A model generated the notes under the pieces. That model worked only from the letters and a program-made list of their open reading frames with translations, was not told where the DNA came from and searched no databases. A stretch of DNA of 64,000 nucleotides from Candidatus Tayloriibacteriota bacterium (GTDB taxonomy: Bacteria; Patescibacteriota; Minisyncoccia; Phycocordibacterales; PALSA-1337). Positions 3,065 through 57,601 of the stretch are shown in pieces. How positions within the stretch are numbered: the stretch's first letter is position 1; every line of letters starts with the position of its first letter. The position numbers and the translations under genes are program-made. The stretch spans positions 7,994 through 71,993 of the forward strand of contig CALRAJ010000002.1 in the NCBI GenBank assembly GCA_943350765.1. The letters run 5' to 3'.

Positions 3065-3448
3065 TTGGTAAGCTCAGTACTTTCGGTACCTCCGCTACCA
3101 TTTGTGTGTACAACATGTTTAGGTTATACTTACTCTATGAATGAAGTTTTTTCAAAGAGAATAATTAGATCTATGATTGTAGCCGTGTTGTGTATTGTTG
3201 GTGGGTATGTGGGTATTTTGTTTTTGATAAATTCAAATGGTTTCCTTCCGATGATAATACTAGGGTCTTTGTTAGTTATCCTTGGTCTGGTAGGGATGGT
3301 CGCCGTGGTTGCTAAAGATGCATTGTATTTATATAAAAGAAATGTGTCTAATTACGATAATAACACAAGAAACTGGACGGCAGTATTAATTCTTATTTCA
3401 TTCACCCTCGTCTTTCTGCTTTTTAAATATGCTGGTATGTTTGATTAA
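3065..3448 (+). CDS. Small membrane protein (hypothetical; start may be internal at 3137)
   Basis: ORF with 3 predicted TM helices; no family assignment. Confidence 0.3.
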   Translation: MVSSVLSVPPLPFVCTTCLGYTYSMNEVFSKRIIRSMIVAVLCIVGGYVGILFLINSNGFLPMIILGSLLVILGLVGMVAVVAKDALYLYKRNVSNYDNNTRNWTAVLILISFTLVFLLFKYAGMFD

Positions 3449-6615: not shown

Positions 6616-6938
6616 TCCGCCCGTCAACTCAAGGGAGTTGGGAATACCCGAAATCTCTGCCTAGCAGGGCCTAAGGTAAGCTCAATGACAGGGAGTAAGT
6701 CGTAACAAGGCACGGGTAGCGGAAGCTGCTCGTGGATTATTTCAATTTGAACACGGTGTACAGTTTCTTCGGAATCTGTATTACCTTAAATGGTCTTTTG
6801 TCATTATTTTGGTGATAGGGTAATGGTTCTGCAACCTCAAATGCGAACCCTCAGCCATGAGAGAGGAATGGCGCAGGTCGGTATCCTCTATAGAGATACT
6901 GACCGGTGAACGGAACAAAATAAAGAATGATATTAAAG

Positions 6939-26144: not shown

Positions 26145-26178
26145 TCAAAACTATTTGATATGGTAATATACATGGAAT

Positions 26179-27390
26179 ATGGATCAAAATAATGTTGTTG
26201 GTATTCAGATAAAGGACATACTCAAATCCACTCGTCTTGGTTTATTTCCATTACCGACAGATGTTTCTATTGAAGAATGCTGGACATGTTTCTGTTGTAC
26301 TAAAAAACTGGAAGTTTTTGCTGTATTAATTGGGGTAAAAGTACATTCTCAAATTCGTGTCGGAGTCTGTGGTTACTGTGGGTATATGGGGTATATTGAT
26401 CGGCCAGCCAAGGCATGGCTTACTTCCTTTTATTCTATTGATTGGGATAAAGAGTTTATGCGTTCGGCTACACAGATGAAAAGTGATGTTGTTTTGCAGA
26501 AGGGTGGTGTTAAAGGTAGTAGACAGCGTGCTTTTGAGCTCCATCGTCAGGTTCCGGTTGATAAAAAGAAGCCTTATTTTGAAATTGGAAGTGGTTACGG
26601 CCAAGTTATGAAGAACTTTGAAATTGCAGGTTTCGAAAAGCTCTATGGCATAGAGAATTCTAAACATCGAACTGAATTGGTAAAAAAAGTGTTTGGTTTC
26701 GAAATCCATCACGGTGATTTTGGGAGTAGAGAGGTCACAGAAAAGATCAATAAAAATGCTCCATACGGGCTTATTTTTTCACACCATGTGCTTGAGCATG
26801 TATACGATCCAAATGAGGTGGTGCGTGCTATGGCAGGGATGCAGGATGAAGGGGACTATGCTATTTTTGCAGTACCCAACGTTGCTGGTGAACATATGAA
26901 TTATGTCACTTTGTACTGGCCACATTTACATGGGTTTACAAAAGAGTCGCTCGAAATACTTTTTAATCGTCATGGTTATGAGGTCGTTGTCGACGGGTCC
27001 CCAGATATACTTAATATTATTTTTGTCCTAAAAAAAACAAAGAATCCAAAAGCAATTTTTAAAAAGAGAGATGATTATGTTGCTGAGGCAAAAAAACGAA
27101 TTCGTGTTGCCATGAGTGCAGGTGTCTTGTCGAAAGGTCTATCTGAGCTTCTTTGGGACCAAAAAATCACAGAGAGAGATAATTCATCAGTGCAAAAAAT
27201 AAGCGGGGGATTTTTCGGGGGAATTATTATTTGGCATGCGAAACAAATAATTTCTTGGATAAAGTCCAGAATTTTTAAAAGGCTTAGTGTGCAGTATTCA
27301 TTGCTTGTTTCGCCTGTTTTTGAGAAGATTAGTAAATATGATGCTTTCGAGATACAATTTAAAAAGAATATTACTTTCTTAATAAAATAG
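26179..27390 (+). CDS. SAM-dependent methyltransferase with N-terminal Cys-rich (zinc-ribbon-like) region
   Basis: CWTCFCC..CGYCGYM cysteine cluster; motif I FEIGSGYGQV; HHVLEHVYDP. Confidence 0.6.
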   Translation: MDQNNVVGIQIKDILKSTRLGLFPLPTDVSIEECWTCFCCTKKLEVFAVLIGVKVHSQIRVGVCGYCGYMGYIDRPAKAWLTSFYSIDWDKEFMRSATQMKSDVVLQKGGVKGSRQRAFELHRQVPVDKKKPYFEIGSGYGQVMKNFEIAGFEKLYGIENSKHRTELVKKVFGFEIHHGDFGSREVTEKINKNAPYGLIFSHHVLEHVYDPNEVVRAMAGMQDEGDYAIFAVPNVAGEHMNYVTLYWPHLHGFTKESLEILFNRHGYEVVVDGSPDILNIIFVLKKTKNPKAIFKKRDDYVAEAKKRIRVAMSAGVLSKGLSELLWDQKITERDNSSVQKISGGFFGGIIIWHAKQIISWIKSRIFKRLSVQYSLLVSPVFEKISKYDAFEIQFKKNITFLIK

Positions 27391-28196: not shown

Positions 28197-28925
28197 CTAT
28201 TTGTCTAACAAAAGTTTTTTGAATCTTATTTCTGACACTTCCCATTCGTCTGGGGTGTTAATATCCATTTCGTATTTTGCTGGTTCAGCCGTCACACAGA
28301 GCTCTACTTTATCGCCATAGAGATTTGGTCGCTCTGGGTCGTAGAGATTTTTTGGCTTCAAGACATATGCGATGTCATTTCGAGCGTAACATTTCTGAGG
28401 AAAATCTTGTCGACGGGTGAGTATTTTTTTAAGGGGCACATTTCCCCAGAGGGTAATTTTGCTATCCGGATTTCTGGTCAATGTCCAGTACGGAGTATGG
28501 TTTGCAGGTGTTTCGTTTACTGTTATCACAGAGTCAGCCAATGTTTTTTTAAAAATCTCGATTGCTTCTGTTAGATGATCTGCCTTTCGAGCTGGACTTG
28601 TTGGAAGGACCATAATAAGACCATCCGCCTCATAACCCTCGTTTTCTTTGAGCCATTCATATGTATGTTTTAGGACGGGTTCTATACCTATGGTGTCAAT
28701 TGAAAATTCTGGTGGTCTTAAAAAAGGTACTTCGGCACCATGTTCTTTTGCAATATCTGATATTTCTTTACTGTCCGTCGAGACGATGACCCTATCTATT
28801 AGAGGACAATTCTTTGCAGTTTCTATTGTCCATGCGATCAGGGGCTTACCACAAAAATCTCGGATATTTTTAAAAGGGATAGATTTTGAGCCACCTCTTG
28901 CTGGTATAATTGCTATAATTTTCAT
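28197..28925 (-). CDS. CMP-nonulosonic acid synthetase (acylneuraminate cytidylyltransferase family)
   Basis: MKIIAIIPARGGSKSIPFKNI...GKPLIAWTIE N-terminus diagnostic of the CMP-NeuAc/CMP-KDO synthetase fold. Confidence 0.8.
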   Translation of the reverse strand: MKIIAIIPARGGSKSIPFKNIRDFCGKPLIAWTIETAKNCPLIDRVIVSTDSKEISDIAKEHGAEVPFLRPPEFSIDTIGIEPVLKHTYEWLKENEGYEADGLIMVLPTSPARKADHLTEAIEIFKKTLADSVITVNETPANHTPYWTLTRNPDSKITLWGNVPLKKILTRRQDFPQKCYARNDIAYVLKPKNLYDPERPNLYGDKVELCVTAEPAKYEMDINTPDEWEVSEIRFKKLLLDK

Positions 28926-28957
28926 AACATATAGTATACTATATCAGTCTTTAATAT

Positions 28958-34797: not shown

Positions 34798-36143
34798 TAT
34801 ACAGTAGCTTTACTCGCAGTGTTTTCGTCAGGTAATTCCTTTAAATTTTTCAGGAGGAAAAACATCACGAGGGCAGTGAGGTATTTTGTTACAACTAAGG
34901 AAACAATGATACCCAATACTCCATAGAAATATACCGAAATAAGCATGAATACTGTGCTAAAAATACTGACACCAAGACTAAGTATATACTTTTCTTTCAG
35001 GGCTTTTTTTGCGGTAAAGGCAGTATCAGATAAATTACCTAACAGTAGCATAAAGACGGAGTATATTTGGGAATAAAATACCGAATCCATATATTGAGGG
35101 AAGAATATTTTGTATATATAGGGTGCTAGAATAATGTAGGCAAGCACGATTGGACCAAGTACGAGAAGGGAAAGGAGGAATTTTTTTGGCACACTCTCCT
35201 TAAGTTCTTCTAAACTTCTTCCTGCAAGCTTGGGCATAGCAAGTGGTGCCAACATACCAACAAAACTGCGTACCTGTTTTGGTATTGCTGTAGAAAAAGT
35301 GTATATGGCAAGCTCAGCAGCACCTAGGTAGTGGTAGACAAGGACCTTGTCTACTTGAGCAGAAATATTTAGCCAAATATTTATAAAACTTATATGTTTT
35401 CCAAAATTGAAAGCTGTATAGTCGACGGGTGCATCAGTCGTCACCCCACGAGCTATTTTAAAGTAAAAAAAAGATTTAGTCAGAAGATCGGCTCCAAAAA
35501 ATACAGCAACTAAAGCAATTACATTGTCGGTAAAGAGGATTGCAATAAAAAATGCGACAGCTGCCGTAATACTTTCGACAGAATTATACAAAGAGCTTTT
35601 TTTAAAGTCTTTTTTACCACTCAAGTATGGACCGTATAATCCAACCGTTTTTAATAGCGGTGAAATACAAGCGATGATAATAAGCGATATTCCGAGCGTG
35701 TAGTTATTGTTAAATAAATAGTATCCAGCACCGATGAGTGATCCTACTACCATAAAAACACTCCACTTTAAACTCACGGAAATCGCTTTTTTAAATGTGC
35801 CGTCATACCCCCTTGCTACTGCCCGAGTTAGCGCTGTGCCGAGACCTGTCAATGTGAAGGTGGTTATAATACCTGAAATAGAAATAATGTATTTGTAATC
35901 CCCGTATACTTCTTTTGGTAGAAAGTGTGCACAGGCTATTGCGAGTAGGAATGATCCTGCGGAGGCAACTCCCTGACTGAAAAAGAGCCAAAAACTCCCT
36001 TTGGTGAGGTAAACCATGTCCGTCTTTGTAAAACGCTCGCTTTTGCGGAGAAGGGAATATACTCGACTGCGGAGGTTTTTTGGGGTGGGGTCTAGATCTG
36101 GCTGTGTCGGTATTATTGGCATTTCTTTTGTATCTATATCCAT
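34797..36143 (-). CDS. Polysaccharide flippase (Wzx-like, MOP superfamily)
   Basis: 448 aa, about 12-14 TM helices; typical Wzx topology and position in the glycan locus. Confidence 0.7.
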   Translation of the reverse strand: MDIDTKEMPIIPTQPDLDPTPKNLRSRVYSLLRKSERFTKTDMVYLTKGSFWLFFSQGVASAGSFLLAIACAHFLPKEVYGDYKYIISISGIITTFTLTGLGTALTRAVARGYDGTFKKAISVSLKWSVFMVVGSLIGAGYYLFNNNYTLGISLIIIACISPLLKTVGLYGPYLSGKKDFKKSSLYNSVESITAAVAFFIAILFTDNVIALVAVFFGADLLTKSFFYFKIARGVTTDAPVDYTAFNFGKHISFINIWLNISAQVDKVLVYHYLGAAELAIYTFSTAIPKQVRSFVGMLAPLAMPKLAGRSLEELKESVPKKFLLSLLVLGPIVLAYIILAPYIYKIFFPQYMDSVFYSQIYSVFMLLLGNLSDTAFTAKKALKEKYILSLGVSIFSTVFMLISVYFYGVLGIIVSLVVTKYLTALVMFFLLKNLKELPDENTASKATV

Positions 36144-36162
36144 ATATGTTATATTTTAGCAT

Positions 36163-38628
36163 ATGCAAACAAATAATATACTACGATATGTGGTTTTGGG
36201 TGGGATTTTTTTAGTGCCATTTGTTTTCCTAATCGTCTCAGAAAGCTTGTTTTTTCCATTTATTACAGGTAAAGGTTTCGTATTTCGCGTTATCGTTGAG
36301 ATTGTTTTTGGTACATGGCTAATTTTAGCATTACGAGATAGGTCGTATATGCCGAGCTTTTCGAAACTTACTATAGCACTAATTTCATTTACAGGTATTG
36401 TACTCATTGCTGATTTAGCTGGTATGAATCCAGTAAAAAGTCTCTGGAGCAATTACGAGCGGATGGAAGGCTTTGTAGTCATGGCACATCTACTAGGCTA
36501 CTATTTAGTCGCAAGCTCAGTTTTAACGACAGAAAAGCTTTGGGATAAGTTTATGCACACAGCTTTTGGTGTAGGGCTATTTATCTCTTTTTATGCTTTT
36601 CTACAAAAAATCGGAGAAATAAAAATCAATCAAGGCGACACCCGTCTCGACGCCACTCTCGGTAACTCGATTTATCTCGCGGTCACCATGCTGTTCCTGA
36701 TCTTCTTTGGTGTTTTGTGGTTTATACGAAATCGTACTAATATCTCAAATATTTTGTATAGCTGGATACTCGGTCTAGGACTTTTTATCGCCTATCCATT
36801 TTATGCTTATTACCAAAAGTTTTCTGAGATTCAAGACTATTACGGTAAAAATGTTATTCCACAAGAGGTAAAAGATCGAGTATTTTTTTGGGCTGGGCAA
36901 ACTCAAGCGGGTGTTACGACGGGATTGTGGCAACCGATACTTTTTTGGTTGGCAATAGTTTTGTTTATTGTGGCAGTGTACACATACGCAAAGAGTTCTA
37001 AACTAAGTTCGTCTCTACATAAATGGACGGCACATATTTTGTACGGATTGCTGATCGTGATCAATGTGGTGGTTTTATTTAATACAGGTACACGAGGTAC
37101 GATCATTGCACTTATGGGTGGCGCTTTTCTGACCGCGATTATTATTGCTTTATTTGAAAAGCATCGACCTTTGGTACGCAAATCTGCGATAGGGGTCATG
37201 GTAATCATCCCGCTTTTAGTGGGTGCGTTTTATATGGTTCGGACAAGTCATTTTGTTACGAGTCACCAAATGATCGCTCGGTATGCCTTGATATTTACAT
37301 ACGAAAACAAAACACAAGCACGAGGCTATGTCTGGCCTATGGCGATAGATGGATTTAAGGAAAAACCAATTCTTGGCTGGGGTCAGGAAAACTTTAGTTA
37401 TGTTTTTAATAAAAACTATGACCCGAGAATGTATGCTCATGAACAGTGGTTTGACCGGGCTCACAATGTGTTTTTGGACTGGCTCATCGCAGGGGGTATA
37501 CTAGCTTTTCTAGGATATGTTTCTTTGTATGGAATAGTGCTTTACTTTTTATGGAGAAAAAGGGAAGTACATTTTTCCGTAGTCGACAAGGCAATACTCA
37601 CGGGTCTTTTGGGAGCGTACGCAGTACATAATGTGTTTGTGTTTGATAATCTAGTCAGCTACATCCTCTTTTTTAGTTTTCTGGCATACATTCACACCCT
37701 TTCTCATCCGCCAAAAAATGAAACTCTTGTAAATTTTGAACTTGAGAAAGGTATTGTGGAGAGTATTATTGCACCAATCGTTATTATTGCGACAATTTTT
37801 GCAATATACATCATCAACTGGAATGCATATTTTGCTGGACAGACTTTGATAGATGCCTTACAACAGAGAAGTGGAAGCCCAACAAAAACACTAGAGCTTT
37901 TCAATCAGGTCTTTGAGTACGATTCGTTTGGTAGTAACGAGGCGAGAGAACAGCTCTCCATGGCTACTGGACAAATGCTCGGGAAAAATGTCGATCCTGC
38001 TATTCAGCAAAAATTCCTAACACTTGTGCGTAAACAGATAGACGAACAGCTCAAAGAAGCACCTTTTGATGCGAGGGCATATGTTTTTGCGGGTGCTTTT
38101 TTTAGTCAGATTGGACTGGCTGGCGAATCAGAAAAATACTTAGAAGATGCCTATAAGCTGTCTCCAAACAAGCAAAGTATCATTATCCAGCTCGGTGAAA
38201 ATAAAATGAACCTAGGGAAAATAGATGAGGCTGTTACTTTGTTTAAAAAGGCATATGAGCTGGAAACAACACAAGAACAAGCTAGAAATATTTATATTTC
38301 TGTACTCGTCTATGCCAAGCAAGAAAAAGAAGCCGAAAGGATTTTGATGGAATCATACGGCACTACTGTAATACCAGATGAGCGTTTGTTGCAAGCTTAT
38401 ATAAATACAAATAATTTTAAAAAGGCGTTACCGATAGTAGAGTTATTAATTGAAAAAGAACCGAGAAATGTAAAACATCATTTTGCTCTGGGTATTATTT
38501 TATATAAACTCGGACAAACAACAAAGGCAATCGCAGAGCTTGATCTAATAGTTAAAATGGAGCCAAGTACAAAAGGACAGATTGATGAGTATATAAAGTT
38601 GATGAAGGCAGGTAAGTCGATACAATAA
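36163..38628 (+). CDS. O-antigen ligase/polymerase-like (Wzy_C) membrane protein with C-terminal TPR repeats
   Basis: 821 aa; multi-TM N-half with Wzy_C-like segment; C-terminal 250 aa with TPR-like repeats. Confidence 0.7.
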   Translation: MQTNNILRYVVLGGIFLVPFVFLIVSESLFFPFITGKGFVFRVIVEIVFGTWLILALRDRSYMPSFSKLTIALISFTGIVLIADLAGMNPVKSLWSNYERMEGFVVMAHLLGYYLVASSVLTTEKLWDKFMHTAFGVGLFISFYAFLQKIGEIKINQGDTRLDATLGNSIYLAVTMLFLIFFGVLWFIRNRTNISNILYSWILGLGLFIAYPFYAYYQKFSEIQDYYGKNVIPQEVKDRVFFWAGQTQAGVTTGLWQPILFWLAIVLFIVAVYTYAKSSKLSSSLHKWTAHILYGLLIVINVVVLFNTGTRGTIIALMGGAFLTAIIIALFEKHRPLVRKSAIGVMVIIPLLVGAFYMVRTSHFVTSHQMIARYALIFTYENKTQARGYVWPMAIDGFKEKPILGWGQENFSYVFNKNYDPRMYAHEQWFDRAHNVFLDWLIAGGILAFLGYVSLYGIVLYFLWRKREVHFSVVDKAILTGLLGAYAVHNVFVFDNLVSYILFFSFLAYIHTLSHPPKNETLVNFELEKGIVESIIAPIVIIATIFAIYIINWNAYFAGQTLIDALQQRSGSPTKTLELFNQVFEYDSFGSNEAREQLSMATGQMLGKNVDPAIQQKFLTLVRKQIDEQLKEAPFDARAYVFAGAFFSQIGLAGESEKYLEDAYKLSPNKQSIIIQLGENKMNLGKIDEAVTLFKKAYELETTQEQARNIYISVLVYAKQEKEAERILMESYGTTVIPDERLLQAYINTNNFKKALPIVELLIEKEPRNVKHHFALGIILYKLGQTTKAIAELDLIVKMEPSTKGQIDEYIKLMKAGKSIQ

Positions 38629-43605: not shown

Positions 43606-43668
43606 AATAGAAATAGGCATAAAACTATTTAGATGTACCACGCACGCATCGTCTAGTACTAAAAAATC

Positions 43669-43677
43669 TGGTATAAT
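43669..43677 (+). promoter_or_regulatory. Extended -10 element TGGTATAAT, 9 nt upstream of ATG 43687
   Basis: TGnTATAAT; no Shine-Dalgarno; predicts a leaderless or near-leaderless mRNA. Confidence 0.4.
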
Positions 43678-43686
43678 GTCTATACT

Positions 43687-43992
43687 ATGAACTCAACAAA
43701 ATTAATTTTAGTACTGGTGTTGCTAGGGGTACTGATTTGGCTGTATCGAAACAGGTCTAATGTCTGGCGACCAAATAGGGAACGGGTGTGGGCAAAATCG
43801 GAGCATAAGCATCAAGTGATGGAGCTGTTTTTATTGCCAGGTATGCGAGTGAAAAATGACGATGTACAGAGGCTGACTGGTGTTTCTGACGCGACTGCCA
43901 CAAGGTATCTAGATGAACTCGAAAAAGAAGGACTAATACGGCAGGTCGGGGTAGTAGGTGGGTATGTGTATTATGAGAAAATAGGGAAATAG
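43687..43992 (+). CDS. Membrane-anchored winged-helix DNA-binding protein
   Basis: N-terminal TM (LILVLVLLGVLIWLY) plus C-terminal wHTH-like RLTGVSDATATRYLDELEKEGLIRQVG. Confidence 0.45.
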   Translation: MNSTKLILVLVLLGVLIWLYRNRSNVWRPNRERVWAKSEHKHQVMELFLLPGMRVKNDDVQRLTGVSDATATRYLDELEKEGLIRQVGVVGGYVYYEKIGK

Positions 43993-44017
43993 CCCGAAGC
44001 AGAGCCATTTTATGAAA

Positions 44018-44105
44018 CGATGGCTCACTGGTCTGTAGTCGATGGCCCAGTGGTGTTTGGTCGATGGCTCACTGCTTTATAATACAAAGCAGTGAGCCAT
44101 CGACC
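44018..44105. repeat. GATGGCTCACTG-family repeat, right boundary of the R-M island (two half-sites plus 18-bp hairpin)
   Basis: CGATGGCTCACTGGTCTGTAGTCGATGGC...TCGATGGCTCACTGCTTT-ATAATAC-AAAGCAGTGAGCCATCGACC. Confidence 0.65.
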
Positions 44106-44272
44106 TCGTCTGGACTAAATTAAGAAGCTTTTTAGGTATCGGACAACTGATTAATTTTTAAAACAAAGTTTAGTCTCGTTCTATCCCCACGGCAAGCCGT
44201 CGGGGTATTCTCCACAATTAAAATAAAAATCCCCACGAGTGTGAGGAGTCAGGCTGTCGGATTGAGGAGGAA

Positions 44273-44578
44273 ATGGCGAAGTTTGACTGCCCGCTTGCCG
44301 ATGATTTGCTTGAGCCACTGTGCATTAGTGTCGGCACACTGCATGATGAGGAGGGCGTTCTGTTTGGTCAGACCGATCTGTTTGCTGGCTCGGTAAGTAG
44401 TATTCGTAGAAACAGTTCTCCGTACCCTGAATCCAACATTTGCGTTGGCGACAGCAGTGATTGGGCAATGGCAGGTGCATCCGTTTACTCTCCGACCAAG
44501 ACGTATAGAGGTACGGTTCGGGATGATGTGCCAATTACTCGTAAAAAGCTCTTTGTAAGCTTGTTTGAATTCGCGTAG
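44273..44578 (+). CDS. Ambiguous small ORF (101 aa) in a GC-rich 0.45-kb island; an alternative 111-aa ORF lies on the minus strand (44249-44584)
   Basis: Plus ORF preceded by GAGGAGG 5 nt before ATG, atypical for this genome. Minus ORF is followed by a terminator (CCTCAC-ACTC-GTGGGG plus T-run, about 44222-44246). The coding strand cannot be decided by eye. Confidence 0.25.
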   Translation: MAKFDCPLADDLLEPLCISVGTLHDEEGVLFGQTDLFAGSVSSIRRNSSPYPESNICVGDSSDWAMAGASVYSPTKTYRGTVRDDVPITRKKLFVSLFEFA

Positions 44579-44713
44579 TGTCATAAGTAATCCGTGCTGA
44601 GTTTTGTCGAAGAGCGTCCTACGGAGGTGTAGGACTCATTTAATCTAATACTACCAGAAATATGTACTATGTCAAGCCAGCCTAACCAGATTATATGCTA
44701 TAATAACCCCACT

Positions 44714-47215
44714 ATGTCATTTTTCACAAAAATATTTGGCGATTCACATACAAAAGCCCTAAAGGTGTATTCTCCATTCGTGTCAAAAATCAACGCTTTT
44801 GAGCCGAGTATCAAGGCACTTTCTGATGACGCCCTAAAGGCAAAAACCACTTACTTTAAAGCCGAGCTGGCTAGTGGGAAAACACTCGAGGATATTCTCC
44901 CAGAGGCATTTGCTGTGGTTCGTGAAGCATCTTTTCGTACTCTAGGACAGCGTCATTTTGATGTTCAGCTTTTAGGTGGAATGGTGCTTCATCATGGCAA
45001 GATTGCTGAGATGAGAACAGGAGAAGGTAAAACTCTCGTCGCCACCCTTCCTGCTTATCTCAATGCACTCACGGGCAAGGGTGTGCAGGTGGTTACAGTC
45101 AATGACTATCTATCACGCCGTGATGCGGTGTGGATGGGGCAGGTATATTCTTTTCTCGGACTTTCGGTAGGTGTGATAAATCATGAAGCCTCTTTTCTCT
45201 ACGATCCAAATCACAAAGAACTCGATAGTGAGCGAGATGAAGTCGGAGCATTTAAAGTTATCCACGAGTTCCTCCGCCCAGTTTCTCGTCGAGATGCCTA
45301 TTTGGCGGATATTACCTATGGTACAAACAATGAATACGGTTTTGACTTTTTACGAGACAATATTGAGTACCAAGTAGGCAATCTTCGCCAGAGAGAATAT
45401 AACTTTGCTATTGTGGACGAAATCGACTCAATCCTCATTGATGAGGCTCGTACCCCGCTGATTATTTCTGCACCGACCGCGGAGTCTGGAGATCTGTATG
45501 TTACTTTTGCCCAGATTGCGAACAAGCTCAAGCAGGAGCAAGACTATACTATTGATGAAAAGTTAAAAGCTATTACGCTCACCGATGCGGGTATCACTTC
45601 TGCTGAAAAGATTCTCGGTGTCGAAAATATCTATACCGAAAAGGGGATTAAATATGTGCATCATCTCGAGACGGCTGTCCGAGCCAAGGCACTTTTTCAT
45701 CTCGATAAAGAGTATGTAGTAAGAGACGGGGAGATAATGATTGTCGATGAGTTTACCGGCCGAATGCAACCGGGTAGAAGATGGTCAGAGGGCTTGCATC
45801 AGGCGATCGAGGCAAAGGAGGGAGTGAAGATTCAAAAAGAGTCACGGACTTTTGCGTCTATTACATTTCAAAATTATTTCCGTCTTTACAAAAAGCTCGC
45901 GGGTATGACTGGTACCGCACTCACCTCGAGCGAGGAGTTTTACAAGGTTTACGGACTAGATACTGTCGTGATTCCGACCAACAAGCAGATTCAGCGTCTC
46001 GATCACAATGACCTCATTTTCCAGACCGAGTCGGGCAAATTTAAAGCGGTAGCGAGGAAAATAAAAGAACTCAACAAAGCAGGTCAGCCAGTACTTGTAG
46101 GTACTGTGTCTATCGAGAAAAACGAAGTACTTTCGGAGTATCTAAAACGCGAAGGTGTGCCACACGAGCTTTTGAATGCTAAAAATCACGAGCGAGAGGG
46201 AGAAATTATCGCGCAAGCTGGTAAAAAAGGTGCGGTAACTATTGCTACCAACATGGCAGGACGAGGGGTGGATATCAAGCTCGGAGGCAATCCGACCACA
46301 CCCGAAGCACAGGCGGAAGTACTCTCACTCGGTGGACTTTTTGTGCTGGGTACAGAGCGACATGAGGCACGGCGTATTGATAATCAGCTCCGCGGACGAT
46401 CTGGTAGACAAGGTGATCCTGGTGCGACACAGTTTTTCGTATCTCTCGAGGACTCACTGATGCGAATATTTGCGTCCGATACTATTAAAACCGTGATGGG
46501 TAAGCTCGGTGTGGCCGAGGACGAGGCGGTAGAAAACAGAATGATTACTCGCTCGCTCGAAACAGCTCAGACTAAGATCGAAGGTTTTAATTTTGACTCT
46601 CGAAAACATGTGCTTGAGTATGACGATGTTCTAAATCTTCAGCGAAAGACGGTGTACGAAAGAAGACGAAAGATTCTCGTCGGTACCGTAGCCGATGTTA
46701 AAGAAAAGCTTGCTGAGGTGGTGGGTGATGATGCTGGGTTACTCAAGGTGATTGTCGAAAAAGTCGCGTCTATAGGTGAGGAAATTTATTTTAATACCAT
46801 ACGACAGCTTTTGCTCCAGACCATAGATATGTTTTGGGTGGAGCATCTCGAGCTTATGGATTATGTCCGCTCGAGTGTAAATCTCCGTGCTTATGGTCAG
46901 CGTGATCCTCTGGTGGAATACAAAAAAGAAGGTTTGCGACTGTTTAAAGAAATGCAGACGGCGATCGATGAACAGATTTGCAAACTTTTACCAAATGTCG
47001 GCGGTGTCGCACTTTCCCATGAGGAGGTAAAACTCCAAGAAGTGCATGAGCAGGCACAGGTGATCGGTAGTGGTGATGGAGATGCAAACAAAGCTCATTC
47101 TGGAGGTTCTCTGGTCCCTGAGGCACCCAAAAATTCCGACGGAGAGAAAATAGGTAGAAACGACCTCTGTCACTGCGGGTCTGGAAAGAAGTTTAAAAAG
47201 TGTCATGGGAAGTAA
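44714..47215 (+). CDS. secA: Preprotein translocase ATPase SecA (start refined from 44669)
   Basis: MRTGEGKTLVATLPAYLNALTGKGVQVVTVNDYL (Walker A/NBD1), DEAD-like motifs, C-terminal zinc finger CHCGSGKKFKKCHG. Confidence 0.9.
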   Translation: MSFFTKIFGDSHTKALKVYSPFVSKINAFEPSIKALSDDALKAKTTYFKAELASGKTLEDILPEAFAVVREASFRTLGQRHFDVQLLGGMVLHHGKIAEMRTGEGKTLVATLPAYLNALTGKGVQVVTVNDYLSRRDAVWMGQVYSFLGLSVGVINHEASFLYDPNHKELDSERDEVGAFKVIHEFLRPVSRRDAYLADITYGTNNEYGFDFLRDNIEYQVGNLRQREYNFAIVDEIDSILIDEARTPLIISAPTAESGDLYVTFAQIANKLKQEQDYTIDEKLKAITLTDAGITSAEKILGVENIYTEKGIKYVHHLETAVRAKALFHLDKEYVVRDGEIMIVDEFTGRMQPGRRWSEGLHQAIEAKEGVKIQKESRTFASITFQNYFRLYKKLAGMTGTALTSSEEFYKVYGLDTVVIPTNKQIQRLDHNDLIFQTESGKFKAVARKIKELNKAGQPVLVGTVSIEKNEVLSEYLKREGVPHELLNAKNHEREGEIIAQAGKKGAVTIATNMAGRGVDIKLGGNPTTPEAQAEVLSLGGLFVLGTERHEARRIDNQLRGRSGRQGDPGATQFFVSLEDSLMRIFASDTIKTVMGKLGVAEDEAVENRMITRSLETAQTKIEGFNFDSRKHVLEYDDVLNLQRKTVYERRRKILVGTVADVKEKLAEVVGDDAGLLKVIVEKVASIGEEIYFNTIRQLLLQTIDMFWVEHLELMDYVRSSVNLRAYGQRDPLVEYKKEGLRLFKEMQTAIDEQICKLLPNVGGVALSHEEVKLQEVHEQAQVIGSGDGDANKAHSGGSLVPEAPKNSDGEKIGRNDLCHCGSGKKFKKCHGK

Positions 47216-47292
47216 GTAAATGAAAACACTTTGGTGGTTAAAATGCTAGATTTCCAGATTTTAAATCAAGCTAAAAATGTCTAAAAGTATTT

Positions 47293-47814
47293 ATGCAACA
47301 CAAAGACATAAAAAAACTCATCAAGATACTGAAAACAATCGACATTGTCAGAAAAGAGTCGGTAACACTAAAGTATGCTGGTGATTCTGCTATCTATATA
47401 GATATTAAAAAAGCTTATGGATACCCTGAGGCACTTGTTTTAATGTGTAAATTAATGATGGAAAAAATCGATGGGAAAATAGACTGCATTGCTTCGGGAG
47501 GCTACGGAGGCTTACCTTTGGCGGGGGCGATGGCAGTAAAATTTAAGCTAAAACTCGCTTTGATAAGAGAGAAACCAAAAAGTCATGGTAGAAATGTGTG
47601 GATTGATGGTTATGTACCAAAAGCAGATGAGAAAGTTTGGGTAGTGGACGATGTGTTCACCACGGGAAACAGTCTCAAACAAATAATTAAAACTTTAAAA
47701 TCAACAAAAGCCGAGGTGGTCGGATGCAGTGTGGTGGTAAGGAGGGGTATTGGTAAAATCGCTCTGCCATGCAAACACCTGATGACCATTGAGGATCTAG
47801 TCATAAATATATGA
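47293..47814 (+). CDS. Type I phosphoribosyltransferase (orotate PRTase-like)
   Basis: PRPP-binding motif VWVVDDVFTTGNSL; size 173 aa. Confidence 0.6.
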   Translation: MQHKDIKKLIKILKTIDIVRKESVTLKYAGDSAIYIDIKKAYGYPEALVLMCKLMMEKIDGKIDCIASGGYGGLPLAGAMAVKFKLKLALIREKPKSHGRNVWIDGYVPKADEKVWVVDDVFTTGNSLKQIIKTLKSTKAEVVGCSVVVRRGIGKIALPCKHLMTIEDLVINI

Positions 47815-48305
47815 AGAATAAAGTTTTATATCACGGTTCAAAAGTTCCAAACATTAAGGTTTTAGAGCCACAAGCTCATGTGGTATGTAAAGGCAGAAAA
47901 GTTGTATTTGCGACGGATAATAGAAATTATGCGTTAGCTATGATACATGCGACTGGAAATGAGTTGGCAGTTTCATATGCCGTTAATTCAAAAACAGATA
48001 AAATAAAAATTTACATTGATGAATTGCAGATTGGAAAATTGAAGCTCCTAGAAAATGTTGGTTATCTCTACGAGGTTGAAAAAGAACACTTTGAACCAAG
48101 TCCTGAAAAACTCAAGGGCGAATTTGTGAGTTATGATACCGTTACTATTTTGTCAGAAATAAAAATAGATAATATTGCAAAAGAATTAACGACTGCAGAA
48201 GATGTTTATTTTGTACAGTATGATAATGTTTTGAAATCAATGCAAGAGAGGGGGAAGATTCTTAAGAACCCGGAGATCAAACACGGTGTAGATCGCTTCG
48301 AATAA
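47811..48305 (+). CDS. Hypothetical protein
   Basis: 164-aa ORF; ATGA overlap with the upstream gene; no motif. Confidence 0.4.
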   Translation: MKNKVLYHGSKVPNIKVLEPQAHVVCKGRKVVFATDNRNYALAMIHATGNELAVSYAVNSKTDKIKIYIDELQIGKLKLLENVGYLYEVEKEHFEPSPEKLKGEFVSYDTVTILSEIKIDNIAKELTTAEDVYFVQYDNVLKSMQERGKILKNPEIKHGVDRFE

Positions 48306-48408
48306 TTTTGTGCGTTTCACCTTCAAAACTAAATCCAATAGTTGGACCTGCCGTTTGAAGTTTTTAGAATAGATTCTGAAACCATGTTATACTGAGACGA
48401 TACAAAAT

Positions 48409-51132: not shown

Positions 51133-51141
51133 TGCTATAAT
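51133..51141 (+). promoter_or_regulatory. Extended -10 TGCTATAAT, 9 nt upstream of the obg ATG
   Basis: Same TGnTATAAT-N9-ATG architecture as at 43669 and 44696. Confidence 0.4.
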
Positions 51142-51150
51142 GCTCTCACT

Positions 51151-52125
51151 ATGTCTTTTATCGATGAGGCACAATTTCATATCAAGGCTGGCAACGGTGG
51201 ACACGGTGTAGTCCGTTGGCGTCACGAAAAGGGCAAGGAATTTTCTGGTCCATCCGGTGGCGATGGTGGCAAAGGTGCTGATGTGTATATGCGAGCAGTA
51301 CGAGATGTGGGTATTCTCGGGCGGTATAGACATGTAAAAGAGTTTGTGGGTGAGCATGGTGTAGATGGTATGCGAAATAGTATGCATGGTAGTGATGGTA
51401 AAGATTTGATAATTGACTTGCCGATCGGTGCTATTGTAACAAATGTCCTAACTGGTAAAAAGTTTAGCTTACTTACCGAAGATGAGACGGTGTATATTTT
51501 AAAAGGTGGTCGAGGGGGAATGGGCAATGAGCAGTTTAAAAGCTCGGTGAATATTCGTCCTGAGGAGTCCACAAAAGGTAAGCCCGGTGAAGAAGGTGAT
51601 TTTGCTATCGAGCTAGAGCTAGTGGTAGACGCTGGACTGATCGGTATACCAAATGCTGGCAAGTCCAGTCTTTTGAATGAGCTCACAAATGCATCATCAA
51701 AAGTGGGTAGCTATCAGTTTACGACACTTGAGCCACATCTAGGCGCACTTTCTGGTGGATTTGTGCTTGCGGACATCCCAGGACTCATTGAAGGTGCGTC
51801 AGAGGGGAAAGGTCTCGGACATGCTTTTCTCCGACATATCAAACGCACTAAAATGATTTTGCATTGTCTCTCGCTCGAGAACACAGCTCTGGTGGAGACA
51901 TACAAAATCATTAGAAAAGAATTGATGGACTACGACCCAGCACTCGCAGAGAAAAAGGAAGTGGTAATCCTGACCAAGACAGATTTGGTGACAGAAAAGG
52001 CTATAGCGACTGCCATAGGAAAAATCAAAAAATACAATAAAGATATTTTTACTGTTACAGTATACGATGATGCTTCGATAAAAAAGCTAAATGATGGTTT
52101 GGTGAAAATGTTACGGGTGATGTAG
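51151..52125 (+). CDS. obg: GTPase Obg/CgtA
   Basis: Obg fold N-terminus (FIDEAQFHIKAGNGGHG..GGDGGKGADV) and G-domain motifs GIPNAGKSSLL, DIPGLIEGA, TKTD. Confidence 0.9.
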   Translation: MSFIDEAQFHIKAGNGGHGVVRWRHEKGKEFSGPSGGDGGKGADVYMRAVRDVGILGRYRHVKEFVGEHGVDGMRNSMHGSDGKDLIIDLPIGAIVTNVLTGKKFSLLTEDETVYILKGGRGGMGNEQFKSSVNIRPEESTKGKPGEEGDFAIELELVVDAGLIGIPNAGKSSLLNELTNASSKVGSYQFTTLEPHLGALSGGFVLADIPGLIEGASEGKGLGHAFLRHIKRTKMILHCLSLENTALVETYKIIRKELMDYDPALAEKKEVVILTKTDLVTEKAIATAIGKIKKYNKDIFTVTVYDDASIKKLNDGLVKMLRVM

Positions 52126-52131
52126 GTCTTT

Positions 52132-52324: not shown

Positions 52325-52376
52325 TTAAAACACATATTCTCAACAGATTTTCTCATTTCAGTCAGTATATGCTAAA

Positions 52377-53834
52377 ATGAAAAAAAGTATGGATACATAT
52401 AAAGCCACAATCGGACTAGAAATACATGCGGAATTGAAAACCAAGACCAAGGTTTTTTGTGCGTGCGTAAACTCTGCTGATGAAGTGCGACCAAATGTAA
52501 ATATCTGCCCAGTTTGTATGGGTCATCCTGGGACACTTCCTGTGCTAAATAGGGAGGCTGTAAAGCATGTACTCAAAGTCGGCTATTCTATCGGGGCGAC
52601 CATTGCCGATTTTACAGAGTTTGACCGCAAAAATTATTTTTATCCGGACATTCCAAAAGGCTATCAGATCAGTCAGTACAAGTACCCGCTCGTTTCAGGT
52701 GGTGTGCTAGCTGGGGTGAAAATTACCCGTGTGCATCTCGAGGAGGATACTGCTCGTTCTACCCACGACACTGGAGACTATAGTCTAGTGGATTTCAACC
52801 GTGCGGGTGTGCCACTTATGGAGCTAGTTACAGAGCCTGTGATACATAGTGCTGAGGAGGCGGTGCGTTTTGCTCGTGAGCTACAGCTACTTTTACGCTA
52901 TCTCGGGGTTGGAGATGCTAATATGGAAAAAGGGGAGATGCGTGTCGAGGCAAATATATCGGTGAGTCCCGAGTCGAAAGGAGAAAGTCAAAAGTTAGGT
53001 ACCAAAACAGAAGTCAAAAACCTCAACTCCTTCAAGGTGGTAGAAAAAGCGATTGCCTGTGAGATAAAAAGACAGATTGCCTTGCTCGAAAGTGGTGAAA
53101 AAGTGATACAGGAAACTCGTGGCTGGGATGAGGCTGGGCAAAAAACATACTCTCAGAGAATCAAAGAGGATTCGCATGACTACCGATATTTTCCAGAGCC
53201 AGATTTGCCAAAACTCAAGCTCAGTGAGATTGTAGAATTTAAAAAAGAAGTGCTTGAAAAAGAGCTGGGTGAGCTTCCGTGGCAAAAGCGCGAAAGACTT
53301 CAGAAAGATTTTGCTCTCAAGCCTCTAGACGCCGAGATTTTTGTGCAGTCAAAAGAGCTGGCGGACTATTTCGAGCAGGTGATCAAGCGGTTTCAGCCAA
53401 ACACTAAATTGGTAAAACTATCTGCCAACTATATTCTTTCAGATTATCTCGGCTTGCTTAAAAACGACACTACTGGAGCGACTATTTCAAAAATCTCTCC
53501 AGAAAGTTTCTCAAAACTTATACAAATGGTGGGGGACAATAAACTTTCGTCTCGAGGGGCAAAAGACACCATGCTCGCACTTTTTACTGATGGCGGTGAG
53601 CCAGAGGAGGTTGCAACAGCTCGAGGTCTAATACAAAAAAGTGATGAGGGTGAGCTGATGAAAGTGGTTTCGGTAATAATCGAGGCTAACCCAAATGTAG
53701 TGGCGGATTATCGAAGTGGAAAGGAGTCGGCATTACAGTTTCTGATCGGACAGGGGATGAAGGCTACTCGTGGCGGAGCAAACCCTGATGTTCTAAAGAA
53801 GTCTTTTTTGGCTGGATTGACACAGGTGAAGTAG
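52377..53834 (+). CDS. gatB: Asp-tRNA(Asn)/Glu-tRNA(Gln) amidotransferase subunit B
   Basis: TIGLEIHAELKTKTKVFC and downstream GatB/GatE and YqeY-like C-domain. Confidence 0.9.
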   Translation: MKKSMDTYKATIGLEIHAELKTKTKVFCACVNSADEVRPNVNICPVCMGHPGTLPVLNREAVKHVLKVGYSIGATIADFTEFDRKNYFYPDIPKGYQISQYKYPLVSGGVLAGVKITRVHLEEDTARSTHDTGDYSLVDFNRAGVPLMELVTEPVIHSAEEAVRFARELQLLLRYLGVGDANMEKGEMRVEANISVSPESKGESQKLGTKTEVKNLNSFKVVEKAIACEIKRQIALLESGEKVIQETRGWDEAGQKTYSQRIKEDSHDYRYFPEPDLPKLKLSEIVEFKKEVLEKELGELPWQKRERLQKDFALKPLDAEIFVQSKELADYFEQVIKRFQPNTKLVKLSANYILSDYLGLLKNDTTGATISKISPESFSKLIQMVGDNKLSSRGAKDTMLALFTDGGEPEEVATARGLIQKSDEGELMKVVSVIIEANPNVVADYRSGKESALQFLIGQGMKATRGGANPDVLKKSFLAGLTQVK

Positions 53835-56640: not shown

Positions 56641-57315
56641 ATGTCCATCTCAATCATTCCCGCAATCCTTCCAAACAGTTTCAAAGAACTTGAGGAAAAA
56701 ATGACTCAAGTAAATGGACTTGTACCTATGGTACAGGTAGATATTTGTGATGGAAAATACACCCCAAAGGCTACTTGGCCATATCGAAAGCCCGATAACT
56801 CTTTTGATGCTATGATGCGTGAGGAAAGAGGCATGCCGTTTTGGGAAGAACTTGATTTTGAAGTTGACCTCATGGCTCGTGATCCAGAAGTGCTTGTGTT
56901 GCAATGGGTAACAGCAGGTGCTAAAAGGATTATTATCCATGCAGATTCGACAGAAAAGCTTGGTGAAGTCATAGCGATGTGTAAAGATTTGGTAGAAGTA
57001 GGGGTGGCTGTCGGATTTAATACACCACTTGAAAAGATTTTGCCGTATGTAGCAGATATTTCGGTAATCCAGTGTATGGGAATAGGTAGGATTGGTTTTC
57101 AGGGCGAAGTATTTGATGATAGAGTTTTTGATAAAATACATGAAATCCGCACAACACTACCCGAGATGGAGATAAGTGTAGATGGCGGTGTAAATCTTGA
57201 AAATATAGATCAGCTCATTGACGCAGGAGTGTCTCGTCTCGTCGTCGGCTCAGCTATTTTTGGTGAAATCGATATCCACAAAGCCATTAGTGATTTTCAA
57301 GAACGGGCAGTATAA
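56641..57315 (+). CDS. rpe: Ribulose-phosphate 3-epimerase
   Basis: SIIPAILPNSF...VQVDICDGKYTP, HADSTE, GFNTPLE; Rpe TIM-barrel motifs. Confidence 0.85.
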   Translation: MSISIIPAILPNSFKELEEKMTQVNGLVPMVQVDICDGKYTPKATWPYRKPDNSFDAMMREERGMPFWEELDFEVDLMARDPEVLVLQWVTAGAKRIIIHADSTEKLGEVIAMCKDLVEVGVAVGFNTPLEKILPYVADISVIQCMGIGRIGFQGEVFDDRVFDKIHEIRTTLPEMEISVDGGVNLENIDQLIDAGVSRLVVGSAIFGEIDIHKAISDFQERAV

Positions 57316-57322
57316 TATAGAC

Positions 57323-57601
57323 ATGCAAAAAAAGTCTCAAGGTTTAAAAAGTAAGGGTGTGATGACGCTCGATAAACTTGCTGGTATGATGGCAAATGGT
57401 TTTTCAAATTTGGAGGAGAGGCTCGGTGGAAGAATAGATTCTCTTGAAAATAGAATAGACACTCTGGAGGACGGCATTTTGCAAAAGTTTTCTGGTCTTG
57501 AAAATCGCATTGATAATCTCGCTGAGGGTAAGGCTAGTCGAGATGAAGTGCATGTATTGAATACCCGAGTTATTCGTGTCGAGAAAAAACTAAGCATTTA
57601 A
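57323..57601 (+). CDS. Small coiled-coil protein with LENRIDxLxEG repeats (start refined from 57218)
   Basis: Repeats LENRIDTLEDG / LENRIDNLAEG; TATAAT 6 nt before ATG. Confidence 0.4.
   Translation: MQKKSQGLKSKGVMTLDKLAGMMANGFSNLEERLGGRIDSLENRIDTLEDGILQKFSGLENRIDNLAEGKASRDEVHVLNTRVIRVEKKLSI

Follow-up and report, generated by a model that had tools for sequence, protein, structure and literature searches.

In the group C genomes of GeneMarkS-2, which include Actinobacteria and Deinococcus-Thermus (for example, M. tuberculosis and D. deserti), leaderless transcription affects about 25 to 50% of transcripts or operons (PMC6028130). For D. deserti, a genome-wide study puts the leaderless fraction at 60% (PMC4007540). 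In Parcubacteria, the anti-SD motif is present in only 48% of members (Tsurumaki et al. 2022, RNA 28:1041; PMC9297842); that paper deals with rRNA loss only, leaves leaderless mRNAs unmentioned and keeps the initiation route open. Leaderless architecture and the loss of the anti-SD in Parcubacteria are, each on its own, already known. Our literature search returned no paper joining the two, and no substantive report of leaderless mRNAs in Patescibacteria, CPR, Parcubacteria or Saccharibacteria. Here we analyze a 64,000-nt stretch of DNA (the window) from an uncultured ultra-small bacterium of the CPR/Paceibacteria, whose SecA groups with Parcubacteria/Paceibacteria. We consider it likely that sigma-70-type extended -10 promoters located 6 to 10 bp before the ATG give rise in this clade to leaderless or near-leaderless mRNAs, as a major but not the sole mode of initiation.

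The 3′ end of the window's 16S rRNA reads GGAUUAUUUCAAUU, the consensus being GGAUCACCUCCUU. In the alignment to the Rfam SSU model, GGAUcACCUCCUUu of the model pairs with GGAUUAUUUCAAUU of the window, and UUUCA stands where the anti-SD core CCUCC would be. SD-like tetramers precede only 2 of 57 window genes (4%, versus a background of 9%), and in most of the related loci described below they are also at or under background. G is depleted upstream of starts in the window, and the upstream regions of genes that do not have the leaderless architecture are A-rich and G-poor. The same pipeline applied to 100 kb of E. coli as a control found SD-like motifs at 44% of genes and the promoter box at 0 of 85. 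The proposal of the first-pass annotation that both SD and anti-SD are absent is therefore borne out, as is the tie it drew between their absence and the box architecture. The 80 related loci hold no 16S genes with which the tail could be compared.

Within the window, TGNTATAAT occurs only 8 times, and in three of these cases it is followed by N9 and an ATG that opens an ORF (TGnTATAAT-N9-ATG at the winged-HTH gene, secA and obg; Table 1). In 100 dinucleotide-preserving shuffles, 0.03 ± 0.17 such matches were expected. The identical 9-nt spacing that had been noted at these three genes is thus real, and the motif positions and spacings given earlier for them, for the coiled-coil gene and for secF all read as described. 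The secA ORF has an earlier in-frame ATG, its first, at 44669, upstream of the -10 box; Pfam SecA_DEAD begins at residue 5 of the protein begun at 44714. As is usual for extended -10 promoters, secA has no good -35. A palindromic hairpin between the winged-HTH gene and the secA promoter is likely a transcription-unit boundary. Similarly, Pfam GTP1_OBG begins at residue 4 of the obg protein begun at 51151. In gatB, an upstream in-frame ATG (52377) falls within the -10 box itself and GatB_N begins at residue 7 counted from 52389, which is the true start; public gene calls give 481 aa.

Other window genes have the same arrangement. The -10 of the coiled-coil gene overlaps the stop codon of the ribulose-phosphate epimerase gene upstream, and the A of its ATG is the 7th nucleotide past the -10. 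In the 19-nt divergent intergenic region, two extended -10 boxes overlap on opposite strands (TGCTAAAAT-N9-ATG, minus; TGTTATATT-N7-ATG, plus), and there is no space for two leaders with ribosome-binding sites. Among 41 tblastn matches to the N-terminal 80 aa of the plus-strand gene, some of them possibly paralogues, 22 retain an extended -10 at 5 to 11 nt. In flanking contigs from this organism, lepA (N10), divIC (N8), a zeta toxin (N6) and further genes have the box at independently called starts. The gene secF does have TATAAT 14 nt upstream, as had been reported, but it does not serve as a leaderless example, being operon-internal (in the same-organism contigs it follows secD by 31 nt) with an N14 spacer. 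We set aside an ATG at 54072 in the GAPDH gene (N6) as a probable false start, the canonical N-terminus lying at 54150.

Table 1. Coordinates of features in the window
Feature	Position	Strand	Basis or remark
16S rRNA 3′ end, GGAUUAUUUCAAUU	6734..6747	+	Rfam SSU model alignment
secA extended -10 element, TGCTATAAT	44696..44704	+	exact-pattern match; without good -35
secA spacer aaccccact (9 nt) and ATG	44705..44716	+	sequence; ATG at 44714
secA CDS, 833 aa	44714..47215	+	Pfam SecA_DEAD, P-loop_SecA, SecA_PP_bind, SecA_SW, SEC-C
TGGTATAAT (43669-43677), N9, ATG 43687	43669..43689	+	101-aa membrane-anchored winged-HTH gene, 43687-43992
obg: TGCTATAAT (51133-51141), N9, ATG 51151	51133..51153	+	gene 51151-52125
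Palindromic hairpin, TCGATGGCTCACTG...CAGTGAGCCATCGA	44061..44103	.	between winged-HTH gene and secA promoter
gatB: TGCTAAAAT-N10-ATG	52370..52391	+	start ATG 52389
TATAAT (57311-57316), N6, ATG 57323	57311..57325	+	92-aa coiled-coil gene
TGGTAATAT-N9-ATG	26161..26181	+	methyltransferase gene 26179-27390
Divergent intergenic region, 19 nt	36141..36165	.	between ATG 36143 (-) and ATG 36163 (+)
TATACT-N7-ATG	28923..28938	-	cytidylyltransferase gene 28197-28925
TATACT-N6-ATG	3125..3139	+	103-aa ORF 3137-3448; start called in two public contigs
secF: TATAAT (160-165), N14, ATG 180			

A start-agnostic scan of 1.32 Mb, comprising the window and 80 related Paceibacteria loci (ORFs of at least 100 codons), found -10-like hexamers at 6, 7, 8, 9 and 10 nt before ATG in 130, 94, 48, 71 and 73 cases, respectively, compared with about 30 at each of the other positions; the peak rises sharply at 6 nt and both flanks are flat. 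The enrichment of -10 elements near starts that a positional scan was expected to reveal is thus present, and it is specific to ATG, as had also been anticipated: GTG, TTG and CTG have no spacing peak after -10-like hexamers. Across the clade, 33% of the occurrences of TGNTATAAT (n = 103) are placed 6 to 10 nt before the ATG of a long ORF. With gene starts set by a crude first-ATG rule, TGnTAnnnT lies 5 to 11 nt upstream of 180 of 982 gene starts (versus 1.3% of all ATGs), and the box is present in about 29% of clade genes (background, 2 to 5%). The motif also persists among orthologues. TGnTAnnnT stands 5 to 11 nt before the ATG in 50 of 74 secA orthologues, though their sequences have diverged. 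In obg, a close -10 is kept in only 5 of 28 loci and lies 14 to 18 nt away in several of the closest relatives, and therefore the architecture is gene- and lineage-specific.

Could these boxes be chance TATAAT-like words in AT-rich DNA upstream of ATGs, with the three N9 cases a coincidence? A generic -35/-10 scan of positions 43500-52500 found 19 sites, with 19.1 expected, and enrichment within the window alone is modest (8 of 58 genes versus 3.9% of control ATGs, P = 0.002). The generic scan is uninformative, however, because it demands a -35, which is weak or absent in the box promoters. An effect of composition is refuted, and its probability is negligible, given the shuffles, the ATG-specific peak rising sharply from a flat background, the conservation in orthologues, the absence of the box from the E. 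coli control, the roughly 8-fold enrichment of the TG extension reported below and the control word ATTATA, which has no peak at 6 to 10 nt in the clade scan.

The hexamers that an unbiased search found enriched at the box position (TATACT, TAATAT, TATAAT, TAGAAT, TACAAT and TAAAAT) form a TAnnnT family. TGn precedes 48 to 50% of start-proximal -10 boxes, about 8-fold more than the 6% of all -10-like hexamers, and TnTGn precedes 37 to 40% (versus 3% of controls). A weak TTG is found at the 17-bp position of the -35. We identify the motif as an extended -10 promoter of the sigma-70 type, of the form TRTGnTAnnnT and with a weak -35, and not as an accident of AT-rich sequence. The claim that these are genuine -10 elements, placed so as to yield leaders of 0 to 3 nt, is upheld by the TGn enrichment, the sharp ATG-specific onset at 6 nt and the secA orthologues.

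We also considered a re-coded SD. Here the "-10-like" sequence would be part of the mRNA and would serve as a ribosome-binding site by pairing with the altered 3′ tail of the 16S rRNA; a spacing of 6 to 10 nt would suit an SD equally well. The tail, 5′-GGAUUAUUUCAAU-3′, has the reverse complement AUUGAAAUAAUCC, which includes UGAAAUAAU and agrees with TGnTATAAT at 8 of 9 positions, and at the gene at 42535, TTGAAATAA is placed so that its TGAAA core is 7 nt from the ATG. In addition, the motif in related genomes is about equally common before close-packed "internal" genes and first genes: the box precedes 27% of genes with gaps of <50 nt and 30% of unit-first genes, which is unexpected for promoters unless most genes own one. 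In the window, the real tail pairs with a mean dG of -3.04 (permuted tails, -2.55 ± 0.38; 9.7% of permutations as good), and stretches of at least 6 nt that match the tail complement occur in 12 upstream regions, where 6.3 would be expected (11% of permutations reach that count). These permutation tests are non-significant (duplex energy, P of about 0.10; longest match, P of about 0.05 to 0.11), with low power because only 57 genes share the tail. None of the three tests of a re-coded SD was supportive, the two permutation tests giving P values of about 0.05 to 0.11, and the pairing energy is equal within genes (-3.02). The enriched hexamers, moreover, are degenerate TAnnnT with T at position 1 (TATAAT is enriched 11-fold and AATAAT 4.8-fold), whereas the tail-complement words GAAATA, TGAAAT and TTGAAA are unenriched in the clade (0.8-, 0.6- and 1.65-fold). 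The secA orthologues keep T1, A2 and T6 and leave the middle three bases free, which is a sigma-factor and not a base-pairing pattern; TnTGn and the TTG of the -35 have no counterpart in the tail; and UAUAAU would pair with the tail by 5 A-U pairs, which is too weak. Taken together, these observations make a re-coded SD very improbable.

Spacers of N6 to N11 number 59, 38, 18, 39, 20 and 5, respectively, a bimodal distribution. In the N6 class, position -1 is C in 43%, T in 28% and G in 1%, and this preference for pyrimidine with a near-absence of G fits the Y(-1)R(+1) start-site rule. In the N9 class (n = 48), A occupies spacer position 7 in 54% and T occupies -1 in 71%; over the N9 to N11 classes, A is enriched at spacer position 7 or 8 (54 to 71%) and U at -1 (62 to 71%). 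The window organism has N9-10 over N6-7 (9 versus 2), although heterogeneity of N6-7 versus N9-10 across loci is not significant overall (chi-square P = 0.83).

From the motif, its position, promoter character, ATG specificity and clade conservation, and from the lack of SD and anti-SD, all of them read directly in the DNA, we infer where transcription starts and how initiation proceeds. RNA polymerase usually starts about 7 nt past the -10, so that N6/N7 transcripts would begin on the A of the AUG and be truly leaderless. In the N9/N10 class, which is commoner in the window organism, transcription would start either on the conserved A 3 nt upstream (5′-A-N-U-AUG) or on the AUG itself; for secA, the predicted start is A44711 (the 7th nucleotide past the -10, giving the 3-nt leader ACU) or A44714 (zero leader). 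Overall, mRNAs with the box 6 to 10 nt before the ATG probably begin at the start codon or 1 to 3 bases before it, and their leaderless or near-leaderless nature appears well supported in silico. We propose that the ribosome and initiator tRNA would bind the 5′-terminal or near-terminal AUG directly, there being no SD in the mRNAs and no anti-SD on the ribosome to read one. The other genes would rely on SD-independent leadered initiation, with A/U-rich, G-poor upstream regions, or on coupling to the upstream gene.

The flagship cases are N9, and there the canonical start position would yield a 3-nt leader, which counts against full leaderlessness. In Caulobacter, each nucleotide of a short leader lowers leaderless translation about 2-fold, and in E. 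coli one nucleotide is enough to inhibit it (PMC8459731). The promoters may be real and the mRNAs not functionally leaderless, either because transcription would start at the A nearer the -10 and the 3- to 4-nt leaders would be recognized in a different 5′-proximal way, or because the true starts lie downstream on a leadered mRNA. The bimodal spacers, the A and U preferences of the N9 to N11 classes and the bias of the window organism toward N9-10 all agree with this alternative, and GAPDH illustrates that an ATG abutting TATAAT can be a false start. We nevertheless regard it as unlikely: the family domains of secA, obg and gatB start within 4 to 7 residues of the proposed ATG, 74 secA orthologues can be aligned from that ATG through their N-terminal MxFxxKIFGD, and a leader of 0 to 3 nt is still inside the field's usage of the term. 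The D. deserti study classes as leaderless those starts that are "exactly at or very close to" the initiation codon (PMC4007540).

How widespread is this architecture in the window? Under the first-ATG rule, the signature is found in 9 of 57 genes (7 of 30 transcription-unit-first and 2 of 25 internal genes). Hand curation raises this to about 11 or 12 of 58 (~20%), or about one third of unit-first genes. About 70 to 80% of genes are without the signature; these have SD-less leaders of 8 to 40 nt or overlap the upstream gene. Clear leadered SD-less cases are the ORFs at 10884 (N19), 48409 (N15) and 40571 (N30), pyruvate kinase at 7817 (about N48) and the canonical GAPDH start at 54150 (N33), and 17 of 45 same-strand neighbors overlap or are at most 10 nt apart. 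The first-pass annotation had proposed leaderless initiation as the dominant mode of this organism, and that goes too far with only ~20% of window genes fitting; the leaderless architecture is a major mode, not the sole one.

A more speculative reading of the same data is that the altered 16S tail (…AUUAUUUCA…) is no dead remnant but co-evolved with the box, so that TGnnATAAT-like sequences would be -10 elements at the DNA level and weak docking sites for the tail in read-through polycistronic RNA; in a milder version, 5′-A-N-U-AUG in the N9/N10 class would be a distinct one-codon-leader mode. We hold this to be a long shot. If true, one signal would serve both as promoter and for ribosome binding, and this would account for the box standing before tightly packed internal genes as often as before first genes.

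Extended -10 promoters with a start-proximal box offer a partial answer to the question of how start codons are found in anti-SD-less Parcubacteria: in the window and the 80 loci, a quarter or more of genes appear to be built leaderless and none by SD. They also provide a rule for mending start-codon calls in CPR genomes, where taking the longest ORF misplaces the start of secA, of gatB and possibly of other genes, and they predict the positions of transcription starts. The remaining 70 to 80% of genes, SD-less and leadered or coupled, become the main question. Because the mechanism is familiar, these results extend known biology and do not overturn it.

Bacteroidetes rRNA keeps the anti-SD. 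Like in Bacteroidetes (GeneMarkS-2 group B), SD is generally absent here and the regions before starts are A-rich and G-poor; unlike in Bacteroidetes, the motif that recurs at a set distance from starts is a promoter box carrying a TG extension, and a minority of genes have it. Gram-positive extended -10 promoters (the "-16 region," TRTGn) have the form TRTGnTAnnnT with a dispensable -35; the element is the same here, and the sole difference is where it stands relative to the start codon. Mammalian mitochondrial small-subunit rRNA is without an anti-SD. Mammalian mitochondrial mRNAs are without 5′ leaders (PMC12265510). Transcription and RNA processing differ altogether there, with 5′ ends arising by tRNA punctuation and not from a -10 promoter, so mitochondria offer an analogy only. 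As in the anti-SD-less Parcubacteria (PMC9297842), the window 16S is without CCUCCU. Ribosomal protein uL1 is absent from an anti-SD-less subgroup in that paper; the ribosomal protein operons of the present organism lie outside the window and the flanks analyzed. The architecture also resembles that of group C: as there, a Pribnow box lies at a fixed short distance of about 6 to 10 nt before the start codon with no SD between, and AUG is strongly preferred (an ATG peak, with GTG, TTG and CTG flat). The lack of a GTG peak differs from M. smegmatis, in which leaderless translation starts efficiently at GUG (PMC8459731). In group C, however, SD sites serve the remaining genes and the anti-SD is retained in the 16S, whereas here there is no anti-SD and no SD enrichment; and, unlike in group C, the promoters here are of the extended -10 (TRTGn) class, with a second spacing class, N9-N10, prominent.

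In a joint scan of the window and 80 related loci (1.32 Mb in total), which is independent of gene calls, we counted the ATGs opening ORFs of at least 100 codons at each distance downstream of TAnnnT hexamers with at most one mismatch to TATAAT. The counts at 6, 7, 8, 9, and 10 nt are 130, 94, 48, 71, and 73, against ~30 per position elsewhere, and the peak sets in sharply at 6 nt. For exact TATAAT, the corresponding counts are 35, 16, 12, 14, and 8, versus ~3, and 33% of the 103 TGNTATAAT occurrences precede such an ATG by 6 to 10 nt. In the same scan, GTG, TTG, and CTG peak at no such distance, and the control word ATTATA has no 6- to 10-nt peak. Two of the checks proposed in the first-pass annotation, a positional scan (here of the window and related loci) and the comparison of start codons, agree with -10 hexamers being enriched 6 to 10 nt before ATG specifically. 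With crude gene calls (non-overlapping ORFs taken from the first ATG), TGnTAnnnT lies 5 to 11 nt before 180 of 982 starts, versus 1.3% of all ATGs; a box of either type is found 6 to 10 nt before 28.8% of genes, versus 2 to 5% at other upstream or intragenic positions. The same pipeline, applied to 100 kb of E. coli, detected the box at 0 of 85 genes and SD-like motifs at 44%.

The motifs and spacings claimed earlier for secA, obg, a winged-HTH (wHTH) gene, and a coiled-coil gene read as described. We found three matches to TGNTATAAT-N9-ATG versus 0.03 expected from dinucleotide-preserving shuffles (the window holds eight TGNTATAAT in total), and in all three (secA, wHTH, and obg) the spacer closes with ACT directly before ATG. 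This excess, the ATG-specific peak, and the flat control word exclude a chance origin of the motif. The proposed starts of secA and obg are credible: SecA_DEAD is matched from residue 5 of the one product, and GTP1_OBG from residue 4 of the other. The earliest in-frame ATG of the secA ORF (44669) lies 5′ of the -10 box, and the longest-ORF start is therefore probably wrong.

Candidate promoter-proximal starts, leadered genes, and the 16S rRNA gene in the window (N6, N9, etc., nucleotides between -10 box and start codon)
Feature	Coordinates	Strand	Box and spacer	Remarks
secA	44696-44704	+	TGCTATAAT, 9 nt	ATG 44714
wHTH gene	43669-43677	+	TGGTATAAT, 9 nt	ATG 43687; 101 aa, membrane-anchored
obg	51133-51141	+	TGCTATAAT, 9 nt	ATG 51151
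Coiled-coil gene	57311-57316	+	TATAAT, 6 nt	ATG 57323; 92 aa
gatB	52389	+	TGCTAAAAT, N10	ATG; curated; GatB_N from residue 7
Gene	26179		N9	curated
Gene	28925	-	N7	curated
Gene	3137		N6	curated
Divergent pair	36143/36163	-/+		ATGs 19 nt apart; one extended -10 box per strand, the two overlapping
ORF	10884		TGGTATAAT, N19	SD-less, leadered
ORF	48409		N15	SD-less, leadered
ORF	40571		N30	SD-less, leadered
Pyruvate kinase	7817		~N48	SD-less, leadered
GAPDH	54150		TGGTATACT, 33 nt	canonical N-terminus MKKIKVGINGFGRIGR; SD-less, leadered
16S rRNA gene	4742-6747

Further cases come from the same organism. An earlier ATG of gatB (52377) falls within the -10 box, and the gap and overlapping boxes of the divergent pair leave too little space for two leaders. 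On flanking contigs, the starts of lepA (N10), divIC (N8), and zeta toxin, glycosyltransferase, and 253-aa genes (all N6) are those called independently by public pipelines. The zeta-toxin gene (18452-19150 of L081, a further locus) lies just beyond the window and is preceded by an N6 promoter of the leaderless type. At 11688-13727, amid a glycosyltransferase-rich region, the window encodes a VirD4/TrwB-like type IV coupling protein.

The absence of SD and anti-SD sequences, also claimed earlier, is borne out. The 16S 3′ end reads GGAUUAUUUCAAUU where the Rfam consensus has GGAUcACCUCCUUu, and the anti-SD core (CCUCC) is therefore gone, in agreement with Tsurumaki et al. 2022 (PMC9297842), who detected the motif in only 48% of Parcubacteria, left the consequence of its loss open, and never mentioned leaderless mRNAs. 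SD-like tetramers precede 2 of 57 window genes versus a 9% background, and most related loci do not exceed background either; G is depleted ahead of starts. An insert of ~415 nt (6199-6613, flanked by CTTGTAC and CCGCCCGTCA) interrupts the 16S near E. coli position ~1396-1400, and the full-length Rfam alignment wrongly places the 3′ end at 6255. Within the insert is an Rfam hit to group-II-D1D4-1 (6447-6525, 39.6 bits; gathering score, 35); a complete group II intron would be longer than the insert. Because no 23S follows the 16S, the rRNA genes appear unlinked.

The start-proximal motif is a promoter of the extended -10 (TRTGn) class. Unbiased hexamer enrichment at the box position returned a TAnnnT family (TATACT, TAATAT, TATAAT, TAGAAT, TACAAT, and TAAAAT); TGn precedes 48 to 50% of start-proximal boxes versus 6% of all such hexamers, and TnTGn 37 to 40% versus 3%. 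Two further features point the same way: TTG shows up weakly at the -35 position for a 17-bp spacing, and the base before ATG in the N6 class is a pyrimidine in 71% and G in 1%, which is what a transcription start on the A of ATG would predict. We consider it very improbable that the motif is instead a re-coded Shine-Dalgarno pairing with the altered 16S tail, even though the tail's reverse complement AUUGAAAUAAUCC includes UGAAAUAAU, a sequence that departs from TGnTATAAT at a single specified base, and although in related genomes the box precedes closely packed genes (27%) about as often as first genes (30%). At hexamer position 1 the enriched words carry T instead of A, and words complementary to the tail show no enrichment. 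Upstream regions pair with the real tail at the same duplex energies as sequence inside genes, and not significantly better than with permuted tails (-3.04 versus -2.55 ± 0.38; 57 genes share the tail); the longest matches to the tail complement are marginal (P ~ 0.05 to 0.11, with only these 57 genes).

Spacer lengths of such promoters are bimodal (59, 38, 18, 39, 20, and 5 for N6 to N11), with modes at N6-7 and N9-10 and a dip at N8; the window organism prefers N9-10 (9 versus 2). Transcription would begin ~7 nt past the -10 box, so that N6 and N7 transcripts would start with the A of AUG. In the N9 to N11 classes, A occupies spacer position 7 or 8 in 54 to 71%, which would imply a 3-nt A-N-U leader if transcripts start there rather than at AUG itself. 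In both E. coli and Caulobacter, leaderless translation is lowered by short leaders (PMC8459731); either N9 transcripts do start on AUG, or a leader of one codon is acceptable to this ribosome. Across the window and related loci, T stands at -1 in 47 to 51% of all gene starts and in 62 to 71% of the N8 to N11 classes, and G is rare there (2 to 11% across gene sets and spacer classes); this bias may stem from the choice of start site or from an extended initiator-tRNA contact. Given mRNAs without SD and a ribosome without anti-SD, leaderless or near-leaderless initiation on a 5′-terminal AUG is the best-supported reading of these sequences.

TGnTAnnnT is retained 5 to 11 nt before the aligned ATG in 50 of 74 secA orthologues, whose products open with a conserved MxFxxKIFGD, while hexamer middle and spacer vary freely (TGATATAGT, TGCTAAAGT, TGCTAGAAT, TGTTAAAAT, and others). 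For the Wzy/TPR gene at 36163, the box is kept in 22 of 41 tblastn matches to the N-terminal 80 aa, some possibly paralogues. Because obg retains a close box in just 5 of 28 orthologues, the arrangement is gene-specific. SecA relatives in GTDB (one genome per species) are all Patescibacteria/CPR (best identity, 74%), with labels of Parcubacteria/Paceibacteria type (Taylorbacteria, Zambryskibacteria, Campbellbacteria, and Paceibacterota); GCA_943354485.1 is a same-species MAG. Among the related loci, many TPA-assembled MAGs with 65 to 74% identical SecA are titled "uncultured Candidatus Saccharibacteria bacterium"; neighboring hits are labeled Taylorbacteria, Paceibacterota, or Zambryskibacteria, and the Saccharibacteria titles look like database mislabels.

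The first-pass annotation went too far in calling this the dominant initiation mode. Under the first-ATG rule, 9 of 57 window genes carry the signature (7 of 30 first genes of inferred transcription units and 2 of 25 internal ones), or ~11 to 12 of 58 after curation. One of its examples, secF, lies within a secDF operon, and 17 of 45 same-strand neighbors overlap or lie ≤10 nt apart, which suggests coupling. Together with the clear leadered, SD-less cases, these counts mark the mode as a major one, with dominance overstated. For GAPDH, an N6 ATG at 54072 is a suspect start: it would add an odd 26-residue extension before the canonical N-terminus, and its TATAAT is supplied by a perfect 30-nt palindrome (ATCGATTATACGCATGTGCGTATAATCGAT, 54040-54069), which carries TATAAT on both strands and may be an operator. 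Divergent from secA, a 111-aa minus-strand ORF (44249-44584) has a full TTGACA-16-TGnTAGTAT promoter ~63 nt upstream (region 44585-44675) and a predicted leader holding the hairpin GTCCTAC...GTAGGAC; its transcript is predicted to be leadered and SD-less within the same intergenic region.

The window also holds intergenic repeats. One family consists of long hairpins with perfectly palindromic arms (TCGATGGCTCACTG-loop-CAGTGAGCCATCGA), at 7499-7541, 40398-40440, and 44061-44103, with another half-site at 44017-44030 (7 half-sites versus 0.02 expected); each directly follows a gene or tRNA ahead of the next promoter. Lacking T-tracts, these are elements of REP-like or terminator type. The region 3′ of the 16S (6750-7400) has a terminator-like hairpin (~6945-6972), a ~150-nt MITE-like element (6993-7143) whose inverted ends read TACCCCAAATTACAAAATGCC...GCATTTCGTAATTTGGGGTA, and one lone tRNA (7327-7399). 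Two more intergenic copies of one MITE-like end lie at 9434-9457 and 52300-52323, upstream of a murD-like gene (9464) and gatB.

Leaderless architecture and anti-SD loss in Parcubacteria (PMC9297842) are each already published. A Pribnow box 6 to 10 nt from the start defines GeneMarkS-2 group C (PMC6028130), and such architecture has been mapped by experiment in Deinococcus (PMC4007540) and mycobacteria. Our full-text literature searches found no paper linking leaderless mRNAs to Patescibacteria or Parcubacteria. The present case adds leaderless-type architecture in an anti-SD-less Parcubacteria lineage, which differs from group C in two respects: the remaining genes lack any SD system, and a spacing class corresponding to a one-codon leader is prominent.
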